Assembly (NCBI GenBank): GCA_963828845.1 | Contig: CAWHGE010000009.1 | Span: forward strand, 106,660 to 170,659 | Source of the DNA: an uncultured Chloroflexia bacterium | GTDB taxonomy: Bacteria > Chloroflexota > Anaerolineae > Anaerolineales > UBA4823 | Direction: 5' to 3' | DNA length: 64,000 nt | Part shown: one piece after another, positions 1-9,167 of the stretch | How the letters are laid out: every line of letters begins with the position of its first letter | Position numbering within the stretch: the first letter of the stretch is position 1 | The notes under the pieces: generated by a model | Told to the model about the DNA's origin: nothing | What the model saw: only the letters and a program-made list of their open reading frames with translations | Database searches by the model: none | Program-made: the position numbers and the translations under genes

Positions 1-1066
1 ATATCGCTTTATTATGGATATAGTCACGTACGTAATTATCAGAGACATCAACCGAGATCCAGCGCATAATATCACTCAAGGAACACATATTAAGGATCTC
101 TGGAAGGTTCTCGCCCAATCCGAGCCCTGGGTGGATACTTAATCTTAAATCTCCGGAAAATGCCGAAGCCACAGTCGTTGCTGAGGCACCGACGTCCACC
201 CCCAAAACACCTTTATGGGTGTGGGCGTATTCCTTGCTGATATAGCGAATGGTTCTTCCGAAGGCAGTTGCAGATGGCATTAACTGATTGCCGGTCCATA
301 AATCCACTTCATGGATGCCCCGGATTTGGCGGGAGCGTACCTGGCGAAATACTTGAGCCAGAGCAGGCTGTGAGGGTGTGAGCTGTTCGCTATCATAAGA
401 TTGGCGGACATTTGGAGCAATGTGTAAATTTGCCAGGGTCCCGATAGATTCCTGCACGTCCGTAACCAATTCTGAGTTGCCTGCATACAGCACTTCCGGA
501 CGCTGATCTTTGGGCATCAAATAACAAGCCAGCCCAACTGCTTCAAGCAGGTTAATTACCGATTCTTTCGCACCACCTTCAATTCCTCCGGCGACCACGA
601 TCAAGTCTGGGCGCATCTGCAAAATGGAATCCAATCGGGCAACGTTACCTCGCCGGTCGTTCAAACTCATCGTCCCCACCACGCGGGCGTAGGTGGTGGA
701 AGCTAGATTTTTTGCACTCTCGGTGGAGACGTCTTCTAATAAACCAATCGCCACCACTTTTAGCGGAGGACCCACGGATACTGTCGCTACACACGCATCC
801 ACCCCGGACCCATTCGGTTGAGAGGGGATTACGATCTGCCCTCCGGAATCAAATAAGACCCGCCCAGTGATGTCGTGTAACTGATCCAATGCCTCCTTCA
901 CACCCACACTAACGTCATTAAAGGGAGCGCCCAATGTAGTCGGCACACTGCCCTGCCCTAAAAAGCGATAACGCCCCTCAACAACATCGAAAAGGATCAC
1001 CCGTGTGGATACAGTTCCGATTTCTATTGCAAGGACCGAGTCAGCATCAATGAGTGAAGTTGGCAT
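1..1066 (-). CDS. Glutamate mutase L (GlmL/MutL)-like ASKHA actin-fold protein, 3'-truncated by the window edge
   Basis: Missing from the ORF track because it runs off the window. Manual translation from ATG 1066 gives MPTSLIDADSVLAIEIGTVSTRVILFDVVEGRYRFLGQGSVPTT...PDLIVVAGGIEGG...VLYAGN...APNVR...GVLGVDVGASATTV, matching GlmL-family motifs. Confidence 0.8.
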   Translation of the reverse strand, partial: MPTSLIDADSVLAIEIGTVSTRVILFDVVEGRYRFLGQGSVPTTLGAPFNDVSVGVKEALDQLHDITGRVLFDSGGQIVIPSQPNGSGVDACVATVSVGPPLKVVAIGLLEDVSTESAKNLASTTYARVVGTMSLNDRRGNVARLDSILQMRPDLIVVAGGIEGGAKESVINLLEAVGLACYLMPKDQRPEVLYAGNSELVTDVQESIGTLANLHIAPNVRQSYDSEQLTPSQPALAQVFRQVRSRQIRGIHEVDLWTGNQLMPSATAFGRTIRYISKEYAHTHKGVLGVDVGASATTVASAFSGDLRLSIHPGLGLGENLPEILNMCSLSDIMRWISVDVSDNYVRDYIHNKAI

Positions 1067-1078
1067 GTCGATTAACTA

Positions 1079-1807
1079 TCAGAAGAAACGAAGAATGGTA
1101 TCCCAAAGAAAACCTATCCGATCAATGAGTGCAGTGAGGGCTGCGATATATACACCGGCAAACAAGACTCCCAGGGTGACAACAATAAATCCATGCCCGA
1201 CCGTGGATATGTATTCCATGAAAAGGGGACGTTGAACTGGTACACCCTCTTCTTGATGCTTGATGCCGAACTGGAAGTAAATAAGCGTCGCAACGGTTCC
1301 CACCAAGACGATCAGACCATTGATGAACCAACCGACCAAATTGCTTATCTCAGCTGGAGCTGAGTGGATATTTAGCATATTTATCGACGCTCCAACTTGA
1401 GGAAATATCGTCCCTTGAACCGCTCCAGCAACCACCGTAGCCGCCCCAACCCCGGTCAGAAAAGCCAACACCGGCGTTCCCCAACGTGACAGGCGCGGTG
1501 ATGCCTTGGTCAGCATCCAAAATCCCAATATTACCGCGGGTACTACGCGAACCGCATAAATGCCCAATCCGGCCGTTTTACCTGTGGTAATTATTTGTAA
1601 AACTGGCACAAGTACCTGGAACCAGATCACATTATATAGGATTAAGACCGCTGCATAACCCGATGCTACACCGATGAAAATATGGATCACCAGCCGAAAC
1701 AAGGTATTATCACCGATGATATAGCTGAGTACCATAATCGTCAGCAAGAAGCCGATAATCGCTCCGATTGGGTCGGCCAGATTGTTGATACGCTCCAACA
1801 AGGTCAC
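1079..1807 (-). CDS. Polytopic membrane protein of the GlmL/DUF6754 operon
   Basis: 242 aa, about 6 hydrophobic segments, motif LSYIIGDNTLFRLVIHIFIGVASGY; 12 nt from the GlmL-like gene. Confidence 0.75.
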   Translation of the reverse strand: MTLLERINNLADPIGAIIGFLLTIMVLSYIIGDNTLFRLVIHIFIGVASGYAAVLILYNVIWFQVLVPVLQIITTGKTAGLGIYAVRVVPAVILGFWMLTKASPRLSRWGTPVLAFLTGVGAATVVAGAVQGTIFPQVGASINMLNIHSAPAEISNLVGWFINGLIVLVGTVATLIYFQFGIKHQEEGVPVQRPLFMEYISTVGHGFIVVTLGVLFAGVYIAALTALIDRIGFLWDTILRFF

Positions 1808-1809
1808 TC

Positions 1810-3738
1810 CTAGGTCTCCTTCTTCTTACTTGCTGCAAGCATCTTTACTACTACACTGGCGATACTGCCAATCAGAATGATCAAAACTGAAACCGTTACT
1901 CCCACGCTAAAAGCATCCCAAATACCATTTTGCTGGATGTTGCCAACCGTACGACCGTAAGCCACACCACCCACCAAACCAGCAATCAAACCTTGAACCT
2001 GAGACGGATTGGACTCGTAATACGGGCGAATCAGTGGTTCAGCTTGTGAGCTTGTAACCATTAAAAGCGGTGTACCTGCTTCCTGAAGCTGTGGGCCGAC
2101 TTGTTCTATCCAAATCCGGGCTGTATCTGAGTCGTTCGTCAGTACGATCACAGCAGAGAAGTCTTTTACGCTCGCAATCGCATTCAATGGTGCCCCTGCC
2201 CAAACATTGTAACCCGCCAGCGAGTAGGGTAATAAATTTCTTGGGGAAGAAGCCAAACCGAGCAAACCAATCGTACCACCGGGAATATAGCCAAGGTTTG
2301 CATAATTCGAATAAGAACCTGGGGCTCCTGACCAACTCGAGCTGGCATTCGTAATCATACTTTCTGCCAACGCCGGGCCTGATGGGGCCGTCGCGACCAA
2401 CGTCAAATATGCATTTTTGTTCATCAGCTGGATGAGCATGTTAGTAATCGTGATATTCAATTCACCGGAGAAACCTGCTTCATAGTCAAAAGCTATCAAG
2501 ACTGGTGCTCCTGAAGGTAACCCTTGTATCCGTTGGGTAAAATCAACCACGCCAGGAATATTACCGGGTTGCGGGGTCGATGTATGTTGGCTTCCGCTGA
2601 TGATCATCCAGAGCATTGGCAGCAATAAAATAACTGCAACAATCAATCGAAAGATATTGCGAGTGGTGATGATGGGTTGGGATGGTAATGGCTTTGGTTT
2701 CCCTTCATCGGCCAGTAATTCTTTCATCATCTCCACGCGTGCTTGCTGTTCATCTGTGACGCGCAATTTTATGGAGTATGTGGGTGGTTTCTGCGCCTTT
2801 ATGGCTGAGGGGTGAGCTGATATCACGCCGCGTAAGCCCACCAAAGGACCGGCTGTAACGATATCTGCACCTGATAAGTCCTCAACCGGGCCAGTGGGTG
2901 TGACTTTATCCGTGGGGCGGAGGGCTTCCAGCCAGTTTGGAAGCTCGGCTGGAGCAATCGCGGGTTCTGGTTTCTCAGAGCTTGGTGGGGTTTCTTCAGA
3001 ACCCGACATGGCTATCCAATCTGGCAGTGATTGTTGTTCCTGACCCTTTTCCTCAACAGGTTCAGCACCCACATCTTCCTTTTGCACTGGCTCACTGGCG
3101 AATATTTCACCTTCCAGCTTAATTGTGGAAGCTGCTTCCAGGTTTTTTAACCAATCAGGTTTATCTGCAGGTTGGGCAGGTAAGGGTTGCTCTTCTTCGG
3201 TCGATCCCTCGACTGCAGCCCCAGAGCCTTCCATAAAGACCTCTGGCTCAACCTCTTCTGCTGCCTCTTCCGATGTCTCTTCCTGCGTCTCTTCCGATAT
3301 CTCCGCCTGCAAGTTCGATTGTTCAGGCTCACCTACACCCGCTTCATCTAGCAAGCTCGCCAGCCAGTCATCGTCGATTGCGTTTGCCTGTGCGCCTGGA
3401 GGAGTCAAAGGCGGACGTAATATAGAATCTAATTGCTCCGAAGGCTCTTCGGGGGAAGGTTCTTCAGGCTTACCTTCTGACTGGTCTAGAAAACCAGCTT
3501 CGGTTTGTTTGAGCCAATCTGGGATGTTTCGTTTCAGATTTGCTGTAACTCCTGGTTTGGGGGCTTGATTTTCTGCTTCACCCGCCTTTTCAGATGATGC
3601 AGGTAATGGACTTGTTTCGTCCTCCCCTTGAGATGGAGGGATAAAACCCCCTGATTTTAATGGCGCCTGGCAATACAGACACTCATCCAAATCAGGTGGA
3701 TTAGGCTTGCCACATAGCGGACAGATGATATCAGTCAT
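1810..3738 (-). CDS. Membrane protein: N-terminal Zn ribbon, acidic disordered linker with PDWL-type repeats, TM segment, globular domain, C-terminal TM
   Basis: 642 aa; CPLC...CLYC at the N-terminus; E/P-rich linker with five (P/D)(D/N)W(L/I) motifs; TM near IFRLIVAVILLLPMLWMII; VLIAFDYEAGFSGEL and NLGYIPGG motifs. Confidence 0.8.
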   Translation of the reverse strand: MTDIICPLCGKPNPPDLDECLYCQAPLKSGGFIPPSQGEDETSPLPASSEKAGEAENQAPKPGVTANLKRNIPDWLKQTEAGFLDQSEGKPEEPSPEEPSEQLDSILRPPLTPPGAQANAIDDDWLASLLDEAGVGEPEQSNLQAEISEETQEETSEEAAEEVEPEVFMEGSGAAVEGSTEEEQPLPAQPADKPDWLKNLEAASTIKLEGEIFASEPVQKEDVGAEPVEEKGQEQQSLPDWIAMSGSEETPPSSEKPEPAIAPAELPNWLEALRPTDKVTPTGPVEDLSGADIVTAGPLVGLRGVISAHPSAIKAQKPPTYSIKLRVTDEQQARVEMMKELLADEGKPKPLPSQPIITTRNIFRLIVAVILLLPMLWMIISGSQHTSTPQPGNIPGVVDFTQRIQGLPSGAPVLIAFDYEAGFSGELNITITNMLIQLMNKNAYLTLVATAPSGPALAESMITNASSSWSGAPGSYSNYANLGYIPGGTIGLLGLASSPRNLLPYSLAGYNVWAGAPLNAIASVKDFSAVIVLTNDSDTARIWIEQVGPQLQEAGTPLLMVTSSQAEPLIRPYYESNPSQVQGLIAGLVGGVAYGRTVGNIQQNGIWDAFSVGVTVSVLIILIGSIASVVVKMLAASKKKET

Positions 3739-3741
3739 GCT

Positions 3742-4365
3742 CTATCCACCATAAGGACGATCGATACCGATAAGAATGCGTAAACCAGTAGCTACTGTTC
3801 CCAAGGCAACACCCAACAAGAGCCCGCGTGCCCCAGCAATAGCAGGGACTTGGGCTAGCCATCCTCGCACAATGCTTAGTGGGGTAATCTCTCCAATAAA
3901 GAACAGTGGGACAGACCCCACCAAAACTATCAGCACAGTCACCAGGAATAAAATGGTGTTCCATTTTGGACGACGAGCGAGCAGACGCGCTGCGGCATAC
4001 ACTAGAACAACCGCCAAGACCGCCAACAAACTTACCTCTACAGGTACCTGAAAGGAATTAAATACCCACATAGACCAGGATCCGGTTGGACCACTGATAC
4101 TGACGATGAGAATTGTGACGAACAAAGATACCAACAATACGATACTATATACACGGCTCGATCCTTCACTTCCAGTTTTTTTCCAATGCACCATCGCCAG
4201 GTTAAATATACCTAACAACAAGGCAAATGCAGCCAGGATGATTGCCCATCCAATCAGAGTGGATTGAATACCTCCCAACGCTGCGGGGAAAAAATATCCC
4301 AATAATACAAACAAACCAGAAATAACGGCAATTATTGCATTTGTAATGGGTAGAATTTTCTTCAC
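3742..4365 (-). CDS. Polytopic membrane protein (about 6 TM) of the GlmL/DUF6754 operon
   Basis: 207 aa, hydrophobic, C-terminal GARGLLLGVALGTVATGLRILIGIDRPY; 4-nt overlap with the upstream gene. Confidence 0.75.
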   Translation of the reverse strand: MKKILPITNAIIAVISGLFVLLGYFFPAALGGIQSTLIGWAIILAAFALLLGIFNLAMVHWKKTGSEGSSRVYSIVLLVSLFVTILIVSISGPTGSWSMWVFNSFQVPVEVSLLAVLAVVLVYAAARLLARRPKWNTILFLVTVLIVLVGSVPLFFIGEITPLSIVRGWLAQVPAIAGARGLLLGVALGTVATGLRILIGIDRPYGG

Positions 4366-5129
4366 GGGAATATTCCCAATAGCTTAAGGATCGCACCGAT
4401 CACGATGGCACCCACCAGCACCCAGCGTAAGATGTCCTGCATGCGTAGGCTGGCTGAATGTACCCCTCCTGCTCCCAGATATGCACCTGCCGCATAAAGT
4501 TCTTCGCCTAGTAAAGGCTCATCTGATGTGGCATAAAGCACGGCCTGAGCGGGGATGCTGTCACTCCCCGCCACGGTCAGTGATCGGCTGCGTTCGCCTG
4601 CTTCGGTCAGCAAGGCAATCTCCGTCCCAAAATGACCAGTAAGAATATTGGCGGAGATTTGCTCATCATGGATGACAGGCATGGCTCCAGCAGCATAAGC
4701 CATGGGTGTAAGACCGGTCAGGCGTGCATTTGTGGGATCATAACGCTGCTCGGCCGCCAGACTGTGATATGTGCTTCGTAAGGTATCCTGACTAAGGATG
4801 GTGATTACCCCATCGCCTGATGTCGTTACCGGGGGCTTGTCACTGTTTGAGGCTGCTCGGGCGCATCGGTCAAGGATGGTAAGGCCGATAAAAGCAGCTC
4901 CACCTTGCAAATCATTGATATTTCCACGACCAAGGGAGATATGAAGACGTTTTCCCGCTTCCACAGCCAGATCGACCTCACGCCGAAAGTGGCTGAAAGC
5001 CTGGATACCTCGTAAGTTGAGCTTAGCTCGAGTGCGATCTGATAAGAAATAGAATAAAATCAGACCCAGACATAATAGGATAAATAATAAGCCCAGGTAA
5101 TTGGTGATTGAACTAAGCACCTGATCCAC
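4362..5129 (-). CDS. DUF6754-like membrane-anchored protein
   Basis: 255 aa; N- and C-terminal TM segments; motifs AVEAGKRLHISLG, GHFGTE, LLGEELYAAGAYL, ASLRMQDILRW resemble DUF6754. Confidence 0.7.
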   Translation of the reverse strand: MDQVLSSITNYLGLLFILLCLGLILFYFLSDRTRAKLNLRGIQAFSHFRREVDLAVEAGKRLHISLGRGNINDLQGGAAFIGLTILDRCARAASNSDKPPVTTSGDGVITILSQDTLRSTYHSLAAEQRYDPTNARLTGLTPMAYAAGAMPVIHDEQISANILTGHFGTEIALLTEAGERSRSLTVAGSDSIPAQAVLYATSDEPLLGEELYAAGAYLGAGGVHSASLRMQDILRWVLVGAIVIGAILKLLGIFP

Positions 5130-5397
5130 GAGTAGGCGCCTCCCTTAAGAAGGATACAAATTCCTGCCGGTCAATAGGATTTTCGAGCACCTGAGCAAAT
5201 GCTTGAAGTGAACGGGACGACACAGTTCCAGATAGCAGGGGTTGACTGAGATACAGTACTTGTGCGAACAATATACTCAGAGAGCCTGCAGCCTCAAGCG
5301 CGGAAGCCACTCCTTCTCTTAATCCCCAGCGTTGCAATGTACGCGCCCAAATAATCCAGACAGGCTGGTTCTCACTCATGATTAAAGTATAGCACAA
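5113..5397 (-). CDS. Small hypothetical protein, first gene of the operon (start may be ATG 5379)
   Basis: 94 aa ORF overlapping the DUF6754-like gene; motif LEAAGSLSILFAQVLYLSQP. Confidence 0.6.
   Translation of the reverse strand: MCYTLIMSENQPVWIIWARTLQRWGLREGVASALEAAGSLSILFAQVLYLSQPLLSGTVSSRSLQAFAQVLENPIDRQEFVSFLREAPTRGSGA

Positions 5398-5552: not shown

Positions 5553-9167
<3,615 letters not shown>

Follow-up and report, generated by a model that had tools for sequence, protein, structure and literature searches.

An eight-gene operon at the left edge of the window

The window analyzed here is a stretch of 64,000 nucleotides (G000:C9:106660-170659) from an Anaerolineales metagenome-assembled genome (MAG; 2.99 Mb in 26 contigs, 61.6% complete). 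The system in question is an operon of eight genes, g1 to g8, whose sixth gene encodes a predicted actin-fold ATPase of the Pfam MutL family. The first six genes are co-oriented open reading frames on the minus strand at 5397..1 (Table 1). As the initial annotation of this DNA had reported, they are closely packed and all six frames are uninterrupted; successive junctions from g1 to g6 are overlaps of 17 nt and 4 nt, followed by gaps of 3, 2, and 12 nt. That annotation had listed six genes, whereas the operon has eight. Left of position 1 on the same contig (L003, in which the coordinates of g6 to g8 are given), g6 is completed and g7 and g8 follow it, with spacings of 47 nt (g6-g7) and 40 nt (g7-g8) and with no B12 mutase gene. 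The window holds the 5' three quarters of the operon, and the rest extends 3.5 kb beyond its left edge. Promoter and terminator scans at the operon gave nothing above the shuffled expectation. Transmembrane (TM) segments were called by hydropathy scan; the structures of g6 (AlphaFold2) and g7 are predicted models, and g2, g3, g5, and g4 are known from sequence only.

Table 1. Genes of the operon and parts of g4. Plain numbers are window positions; L003 is the own contig left of the window.
Feature	Position	Strand	Description
g1	5113..5397	-	94 aa, first operon gene
g2	4362..5129	-	255 aa, DUF6754 protein
g3	3742..4365	-	207 aa, six predicted TM segments
g4	1810..3738	-	642 aa, bitopic, zinc ribbon and acidic arm
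g4 zinc ribbon, aa 6-23, CPLCG...CLYC	3670..3723	-	Zn_ribbon_RanBP E 0.046, DZR E 0.068 (weak)
g4 acidic arm	2674..3651	-	four PxW[LI] boxes (W at aa 75, 196, 241, 269), one DDDWL
g4 inter-TM domain, aa 381-611	1906..2598	-	conserved motifs FDYEPGxSGE, WIEQVGP, RPY
g5	1079..1807	-	242 aa, six predicted TM segments
g6	1066..2, off the window's left edge; whole gene L003:13960-15726	-	588 aa, 355 aa inside the window
g7	L003:12836-13912, left of the window	-	358 aa
g8	L003:12220-12795, left of the window	-	191 aa

Conservation of the gene order

A scan over one genome per prokaryotic species yielded 55 loci with g6 relatives (43 to 93% identity), and the MAGs that hold the close relatives are titled Anaerolineales, Anaerolineae, or Chloroflexota. 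When all eight operon proteins were compared with these loci by tblastn, 45 of the 55 had the eight genes collinear on one strand, and the other 10 loci are cut by contig ends. Because the order recurs in 45 of 55 related loci, it is not due to chance. Among 12 loci from families elsewhere in the order or phylum, g2-g3-g4-g5-g6 is kept in 8, at 24 to 47% identity; 3 have partial sets and 1 is cut by a contig end. The earlier proposal of a conserved set in which g6 lies beside membrane-protein genes is thus borne out, both by the collinear loci and by the order kept in other families.

Two further samples were used, a set of 41 genomes of relatives and a phylum sample of 201 evenly drawn Chloroflexota genomes. 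The MutL tally of the phylum sample includes the unpublished genome G077, and its FtsZ_C tally includes the unpublished genomes G077, G200, and G219; no specific claim is based on these three. DUF6754, the family of g2, occurs in 38 of the 41 relatives and in 58 of the 201 phylum-sample genomes. Of these 58, 40 have a MutL match on the same contig at a distance of 2.8 to 8.5 kb, 15 have it on a different contig, their assemblies being fragmented, and for 3 none is listed.

Near-identical DNA is present in wetland, freshwater-sediment, and soil metagenomes (11 studies). Four short contigs from one wetland metatranscriptome match the operon stretch, including one of 213 nt that spans the g4/g5 junction with 1 mismatch and one of 151 nt that is identical to part of g6. 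These RNA-library contigs are a weak hint of transcription of the operon, and the parts of the operon stretch that are uncovered in this run are no sign of silence.

g6 is a predicted ASKHA ATPase with additional domains

At full length, g6 matches Pfam MutL (PF13941) with 215.9 bits (181.9 bits for the part in the window; cut-off, 27) over model positions 1 to 444 of 450. The window part falls far short of the cut-offs of two narrower families, with 93.3 bits versus 475 for GlmL (NF040745) and 73 bits versus 204 for TIGR01319. Its close database relatives are mostly unnamed, and a few are called "glutamate mutase L" or "MutL protein." The match to the MutL model stops at residue 463 of the 588, and canonical paralogues are 443 to 470 aa long. 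The remaining C-terminal extension of ~120 residues, which is absent from canonical GlmL, carries the motif IDARGRPL and the invariant residues D557, R559, P562, and W579.

The initial annotation had described the phosphate-binding motifs of g6 as diverged and had argued from this for a possible scaffold role. Comparison of 22 orthologues contradicts the premise: the nucleotide-binding columns G17, T21, G160, G161, G165, D291, G293, and G411 are invariant or nearly so, and we take [DE]15-x-G17...T21, D291-x-G293, and G411 to be the phosphate-1, phosphate-2, and adenosine motifs. At position 15, ahead of G17, most orthologues have D, and this genus and a few others have E; a canonical Or-4-type paralogue encoded beside an aminomutase also reads EIGS. 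Because D and E vary among orthologues and a canonical paralogue has E, the motifs of g6 show normal variation, and the argument for a scaffold role falls.

The AlphaFold2 model of g6 has a mean predicted local distance difference test score (pLDDT) of 89.9 and a predicted template modeling score of 0.91. It comprises an ASKHA (acetate and sugar kinase/Hsp70/actin) core of two RNase-H-like subdomains, with a flavodoxin-like insert at ~99-247 (Z 10 to 11.7 to domains of the receiver and flavodoxin types). Residues 470-560 form a beta domain, which is followed by a C-terminal helix that contains the invariant W579. Foldseek returned 331 matches at E ≤0.001, and among the matches listed, all are ASKHA proteins. 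Structural Z scores are 13.0 and 12.7 for FtsA, 12.9 and 11.9 for BcrAD/HgdC-type activators, 12.1 for PilM, 12.0 for EutJ, 11.3 for type III pantothenate kinase, 10.3 and 9.9 for ParM, and 9.9 for BiP. Based on the actin fold of the model and the conserved motifs, g6 is predicted to be a member of the ASKHA superfamily. In searches against Protein Data Bank (PDB) sequences, phmmer found nothing and the g6 profile touched only PilM, marginally (E 0.02, 70 residues). The FtsA model TIGR01174 has no match at g6; its sole match in the own genome is on contig C21 (E 2.8e-6), and g6 is on C9.

The C terminus differs between lineages. The g6 proteins of families f31 and f47 carry a C-terminal tail with a basic end, and PDWL boxes like those described below for g4 are seen in the tail of one such protein, at locus L072. 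In the own protein, residues 569-587 (L003:13960-14019, minus strand) hold the invariant Trp in a K-W-x-x-x-L context that is loosely PxWL-like. This Trp could, purely as an idea, be a pseudo-ligand or a subunit contact.

g6 is distinct from the MutL proteins that accompany B12 mutases

Canonical MutL proteins were found in the phylum sample as well, and all seven of them (443 to 470 aa) have a neighboring gene for a B12 mutase or for a protein that binds B12. The neighbor encodes an OraE-type aminomutase at three loci (L089, L104, L105), methylaspartate mutase E at three others (L102, L103, L107), and a B12-binding-domain protein at L106. None of the 74 g6-type loci (1.16 Mb) has a homologue of OraE, GlmE, or a B12-binding protein, and the same queries were positive in the control loci. 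Among the 41 relatives, Met_asp_mut_E (GlmE) is over its cut-off in none, and Lys-AminoMut_A (lysine/ornithine aminomutase alpha) is found in one, G039. A maximum-likelihood tree of 33 sequences places the seven canonical proteins on a single branch (100/100 support), and g6 is 25% identical to a canonical Chloroflexota paralogue over ~450 residues.

G039 has two MutL genes. One (E 5.6e-147) directly follows an ornithine/lysine-type aminomutase gene, and the other, the g6 orthologue, sits in the membrane operon 1.4 Mb away. Against TIGR01319, the g6 orthologue scores 25.7 bits and the canonical paralogue 272.1 bits, with the cut-off at 204. Since G039 holds both the MutL gene of L089 and the g6 operon, it provides a natural control for two distinct paralogues. 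L089 itself (G039:C1:832000-846000) is a complete ornithine-fermentation-type cluster in an Anaerolineales-order genome, with genes for 2,4-diaminopentanoate dehydrogenase, a pyridoxal phosphate enzyme, the OraE-type B12 aminomutase, the canonical Or-4-type MutL, and two alanine-racemase-family proteins.

By sequence, g6 is a distinct paralogue of GlmL/Or-4, and the conserved system to which it belongs very probably has no relation to B12 mutases. The suggestion that g6 works with something other than a B12 enzyme holds up: no mutase gene lies downstream or in any g6-type locus, and GlmE is over its cut-off in none of the relatives. Because g6 loci contain no mutase and g6 lies off the canonical branch, the label "glutamate mutase L" is misleading.

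The cytoplasmic arm of g4 carries repeated PxWL boxes

g4 consists of an N-terminal zinc ribbon, an acidic disordered arm with PxWL boxes, a TM segment (362-380), a domain of ~230 aa, and a second TM segment (612-630). The zinc ribbon that had been proposed for g4 is upheld as a pattern, CxxC...CxxC being present in 51 of 67 orthologous arms, and its detection by Pfam is weak (E 0.05 to 0.07). The stretch before the first TM segment has 72 D/E versus 27 K/R, and the C-terminal tail has 4 K/R in 12 residues; from these features the arm is probably cytoplasmic and the domain at aa 381-611 extracytoplasmic. The C-terminal module is kept in all orthologues, with R364, E426, G454, G483, W543, Q546, P572, and Y573 invariant. 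The arm is variable, and whole-protein length ranges from 294 to 1909 aa as a result. Behind window position 3264, within the arm, a wetland population has an in-frame 12-nt insertion (one DNA contig, depth 15); the length of the disordered arm differs even among near-identical strains.

P-x-W-[LIMV] occurs 529 times in the 67 arms, versus 16.3 times expected from composition-preserving shuffles. At least one box is present in 62 of the 67 arms and at least three in 60, with up to 45 per arm. The consensus from position frequencies in these arms is [DE]-[LVI]-P-D-W-[LM]-[RSQK]. In the own, incomplete genome, g4 is alone among 7166 frames of at least 100 aa in having at least three boxes. The FtsZ proteins of five Chloroflexota genomes end in tails that include DLDVPTFLRNRR, DLDIPTFLRNR, DLDIPAFLRRERR, and VIDIPAFLRKR, and a sixth tail, DLDIPPFLRNR, can be read in a shifted frame at locus L071, where the ftsZ frame shifts before the C-terminal peptide. 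Box and FtsZ tail have a common core of an acidic residue, an aliphatic residue, Pro, any residue, an aromatic residue, Leu, and a basic residue. Judged by this core, the PxWL boxes are similar to the C-terminal peptide of FtsZ, W replacing F.

g7, g8, and the membrane module

The structural model of g7 (pLDDT 89.7) has three domains. The N-terminal domain is a barrel-sandwich hybrid with Z scores of 7.7 to 7.9 to biotinyl carriers and RnfC (8ahx_C, Z 7.9, 28% identity over 64 residues). It is followed at ~151-283 by a swivelling beta/beta/alpha domain with Z scores of 11.3 to enzyme I of the phosphotransferase system, 10.2 to aconitase X and rifampin phosphotransferase, and 7.2 to diol dehydratase reactivase (2d0o_A), and at the C terminus by a KOW/SH3-like barrel (Z 7.4 to 8.6). 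In the g7 alignment, His, Cys, and Lys are absent from the invariant and nearly invariant columns; g7 looks like an adaptor rather than a phosphoryl or acyl carrier. In an atlas search, the nearest named clusters carry RnfC_N or Biotin_lipoyl on 11 to 19% of members, and the nearest look-alikes outside the Chloroflexota are commonest in Planctomycetota and Fidelibacterota. A lysozyme match in the search of g7 against PDB sequences was dismissed as chance, and nothing else was found there.

g8 has an acidic N terminus, a TM helix preceded by an invariant R-T-F, and a Pro/Thr-rich spacer, and it ends in LP-x-[TSG]-G, a hydrophobic stretch, and RRLR; P157, G160, R185, L187, and R188 are invariant in 14 of 14 sequences. 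With this LPXTG-type sorting signal, g8 has the sequence features of a sortase substrate, and sortase (PF04203) is present in 5 of 5 genomes checked, the own genome included. Detection of g8 was confined to Anaerolineales and one related family.

The DUF6754-like gene of the initial annotation is g2, which matches DUF6754 (PF20539) with E 1.1e-30 and 107 bits versus a cut-off of 27, over model positions 9-249 of 257. Its TM segments at aa 12-30 and 230-248 flank a domain of ~200 aa that is presumably cytoplasmic, and R40, E57, G165, L206, and G208 are invariant in 20 orthologues. Its atlas search returned DUF6754 clusters only, commonest in Chloroflexota, and its matches among PDB sequences are at chance level. 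By hydropathy, g3 and g5 have six TM segments apiece, as had been described, and the two proteins could not be assigned to a characterized transporter: g3 has no Pfam or NCBIfam family and no PDB sequence relative by profile, and g5 has no significant family (a sole Pfam match at chance level, E 0.082, no NCBIfam match, and no PDB relative by profile). Conserved features are a C-terminal GARG...DRPYGG segment in g3 and 11 columns invariant among 18 orthologues in g5. By hhalign, g3 shows no homology with g5 (probability 0.1), nor g2 with g4 (probability 2.7). The small first gene, g1, has no Pfam or NCBIfam match and no TM segment by hydropathy; in 45 of the 55 related loci, tblastn places a relative of it immediately upstream of g2, and it is present in Anaerolineales and two related families.

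The most constant partners of g6

Six loci come from families that are negative for DUF6754 (two from f41 and one each from f44, f50, f53, and f60). At these loci, profile hidden Markov models for g2, g3, g5, and the membrane module of g4 find nothing, and g6 followed by g7 is found in 6 of 6. In five of them, a zinc-ribbon/PxWL protein is encoded directly upstream of g6. Four of these upstream proteins are soluble, with an N-terminal zinc ribbon, 6 to 15 boxes in an extended form, LID-x3-5-[AS]-L-P-x-W-[LM]-[RK], and a short basic amphipathic tail. In the fifth, a double zinc ribbon is combined with one box and a TM helix at the C terminus. By its sequence features, the upstream protein is equivalent to the cytoplasmic half of g4 without the membrane module.

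g6 is always accompanied by g7 and nearly always encoded beside a zinc-ribbon protein, and the arms with boxes carry 1 to 45 of them. Most lineages have the arm joined to a TM-domain-TM module as g4, which is encoded with g2 and the unrelated six-TM proteins g3 and g5. Because the zinc-ribbon/box arm, g6, and g7 are retained where the g2, g3, g5, and g4 module is undetected, these three are the core; the distribution indicates that they are the unit that travels and that the membrane module is added in most lineages. The initial annotation had proposed an ATPase working with a multi-subunit membrane complex. The conserved linkage of g6 to the membrane-protein genes is real; the membrane module is not the most constant partner.

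Proposed function and alternatives

Our overall reading, which we hold with moderate confidence, is that the operon encodes a Chloroflexota-wide, ATP-driven envelope system built around the ASKHA ATPase g6. In the mechanism that we propose, the PxWL boxes would serve g6, by itself or in company with g7, as docking sites, so that several copies collect at the membrane. Once g6 binds or hydrolyzes ATP, the g2-g5 module would assemble or change conformation, and the output on the cell envelope would be delivered via the presumed external domain of g4 and the putatively wall-linked g8. FtsA and PilM dock onto partner peptides, and FtsA reads the FtsZ C-terminal peptide. For an envelope role of the system, the chances seem to us evenly balanced, and it is possible, if rather doubtful, that g6 or g7 is what reads the boxes. 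A bolder proposal would make g6 a new membrane-associated actin-fold family whose assembly is organized by multivalent, FtsZ-tail-like Trp boxes on a zinc-ribbon scaffold and which drives a phylum-wide envelope machine (g2-g5 and g8) alongside the FtsZ/FtsA divisome. We consider this proposal improbable; if it is true, g6 and the box array are a prokaryotic counterpart of the tandem-motif actin nucleators.

Several points weigh against an envelope system driven by g6. The binding, ATPase activity, and localization of g6 are all predicted, from sequence and model. The best structural matches of g6 (FtsA, BcrAD-type activators, PilM, EutJ, and type III pantothenate kinase) are tied within ~1 Z, so that fold alone does not favor a docking ATPase over an enzyme. 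The likeness of the boxes to the FtsZ peptide involves some six residues and may be a matter of convergence or coincidence. Not all lineages have the PxWL arm: three f29 loci are without boxes, with g4 short (294 to 306 aa) or undetected, the arm of L075 has 0 boxes, and that of L081 has 1. Since these exceptions exist, boxes are not essential to the core function. In f31 and f47, g7 is encoded away from the operon. (The gene next to the unlinked g7 in these two families, at L097 322-1437 and L095 2649-4100, encodes what by eye resembles a response-regulator receiver domain, with a Pro-rich linker after it in L097 and a histidine-kinase-like region in L095.) The folds of g2, g3, g5, and the C-terminal part of g4 may, when seen beyond their sequences, turn out to be known membrane folds, and the RNA-library contigs may come from contaminating DNA.

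The resemblance between the box, [DE]-[LVI]-P-x-W-[LM]-[RSQK], and the Chloroflexota FtsZ tail, D-[LI]-D-[IV]-P-x-F-L-R, raises the alternative that the boxes mimic the FtsZ peptide and recruit or compete for FtsA or SepF, which would make the system a regulator or scaffold of division or of the septal wall, with g6 not the reader. A reader exists, since FtsA is over its cut-off in 38 of the 41 relatives; ftsA-ftsZ lies directly upstream of g2 in L071 (1-2860; G075:C5:2147000-2149860), and the middle domain of g7 aligns weakly with the Mycobacterium tuberculosis division regulator SteA (Z 7.9). We nevertheless regard a link to the divisome as unlikely. Adjacency to ftsA/ftsZ was seen in 1 of 67 loci searched and was dropped as a conserved context, and the SteA match is inside the chance range for the aligner. 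FtsZ_C is found in 199 of the 201 phylum-sample genomes, versus 58 for DUF6754 and 114 for any MutL, so the system does not track FtsZ, and the boxes are tied to g6-g7 even where the membrane genes are not found. Neither FtsA nor FtsZ was found in the own MAG; at 61.6% completeness, this is no measure of absence. A membrane-tethered cytoskeleton, in which g6 polymerizes, the g4 arm nucleates or tethers filaments in the manner of WH2-repeat nucleators, and the membrane proteins are anchors only, would account for polymerizing actins among the best g6 matches (FtsA, Z 13.0 and 12.7; ParM, 10.3 and 9.9) and for arms with up to 45 boxes. It would also fit the f31/f47 g6 tails, with the boxes seen in L072 and a basic end that is membrane-targeting-like, and the g6 C-terminal helix with invariant W579 in K-W-x-x-x-L. 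Nonpolymerizing ASKHA proteins score equally, however (BcrAD-type, 12.9; EutJ, 12.0; type III pantothenate kinase, 11.3), and the flavodoxin-like insert and C-terminal beta domain are without counterpart in known bacterial actins. Polymerization of g6 is hypothetical only, and we know of no GlmL-family protein that polymerizes. There is, in our view, little chance that this account is right.

With four membrane proteins, two of them small six-TM subunits, the operon might instead encode a g2-g5 transporter energized or gated by g6-g7. It would serve export and wall attachment of g8 or act as an Rnf/Nqr-like complex with g7 as an RnfC/NqrA-like subunit, and the alignment of the g7 barrel-sandwich domain with RnfC, the RnfC_N/Biotin_lipoyl atlas clusters, and the sorting signal of g8 together with sortases in the genomes are consistent with this. 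The evidence on the membrane proteins points the other way: g3 and g5 match no transporter or Rnf/Nqr subunit among Pfam, NCBIfam, and PDB profiles, and they are not homologous to each other, whereas RnfA and RnfE are related. In addition, the g7 alignment has no invariant or nearly invariant Cys, His, or Lys for a cofactor, g6-g7 persist where membrane genes are not found, and g8 is detected in Anaerolineales and one related family alone, so that transport, secretion, or ion translocation is quite improbable. The name "glutamate mutase L" implies that g6 reactivates a B12 enzyme, here in trans. The Pfam MutL score of 215.9 bits and the names that NCBI gives to relatives would agree with this, as would the presence of the g7 swivelling domain in the diol dehydratase reactivase DdrA (Z 7.2). 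That explanation is close to refuted by GlmE being over its cut-off in none of the 41 relatives and a mutase being found in none of the 74 loci, by the lone aminomutase genome having its own canonical paralogue beside the aminomutase, by the 100/100 support for the canonical branch, and by g6 scores far below the NCBIfam cut-offs.

Genes flanking the operon

Beyond g8 lies a convergent phosphoglucomutase-family gene with four PGM/PMM domains. Past it and outside the operon, L003 8812-10587 (minus strand) encodes a membrane protein of 591 aa in which a cyclic-nucleotide-binding domain (E 1.8e-7) and, weakly, a bacterial PH domain are recognized. On the other side, a nifJ-like pyruvate:ferredoxin oxidoreductase is encoded on the plus strand at window positions 5562-9167 in three overlapping frames (5562..7055, 6875..8056, and 7569..9167). 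Two apparent frameshifts are implied, pointing to a pseudogene or to assembly indels; the operon has none.

Significance and comparison with known systems

Literature searches on DUF6754, PF13941, Chloroflexi "glutamate mutase L," and the PDWL motif found no account of such a system among the papers listed, and as far as can be told the eight-gene system is new to print. FcmB was considered and set aside as unrelated to the g6 family; it is described as a ParM-derived actin. Sediments, soils, and wastewater sludge hold abundant Chloroflexota, whose cell biology is poorly understood. The operon offers a concrete, testable entry point to how these bacteria build or remodel their envelope, and the PxWL box is an orphan short linear motif for which g6, g7, and FtsA are candidate readers. 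Recognition of g6 as a separate paralogue also corrects a widespread annotation error, because "glutamate mutase L" would falsely imply B12-dependent glutamate fermentation in MAG reconstructions.

Compared with GlmL/MutL and Or-4 (PF13941, NF040745, NF040744, and TIGR01319), g6 has a homologous ASKHA core and flavodoxin-like insert, and the phosphate motifs and an AGGxxGG motif are common to g6 and the canonical paralogue. It differs in its scores below the cut-offs, its C-terminal extension, the lack of an adjoining mutase, and its position off the canonical branch. The combination of an ASKHA ATPase with a swivelling domain recalls DdrA/PduG, except that here the swivelling domain is on a separate protein, g7, giving two chains; the match is weak, and there is no B12 enzyme in the genome neighborhood. 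Rnf and Na+-NQR likewise combine one peripheral protein with several small membrane proteins, and they have a barrel-sandwich domain like that of g7. In contrast to their subunits, g2-g5 show no detectable homology and g7 no conserved cofactor residue.

In the PilM-PilN pair, an actin-fold protein binds a short cytoplasmic peptide of its bitopic membrane partner, an arrangement like that proposed here for g6 and g4. The g6-PilM Z score is 12.1, and PilM is the sole PDB sequence family that the g6 profile touches (marginally, E 0.02). Unlike pilus loci, the operon has no PilN/O/P/Q-like gene, no pilin, and no Pfam pilus families, and g6 has extra domains. FtsA-FtsZ differs from the g6 system in that g6 is outside the FtsA family, the box has Trp for Phe, and there are up to 45 boxes per chain versus one; genuine FtsA and FtsZ are also present, the true ftsA products of relatives scoring 385 to 437 bits, and docking on the boxes is predicted only. 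What the two systems have in common is a structural match between g6 and FtsA, peptides of similar sequence at the ends of FtsZ and in the g4 arm, both carried on long disordered linkers, and a membrane tether in the form of a TM helix or a basic amphipathic tail.

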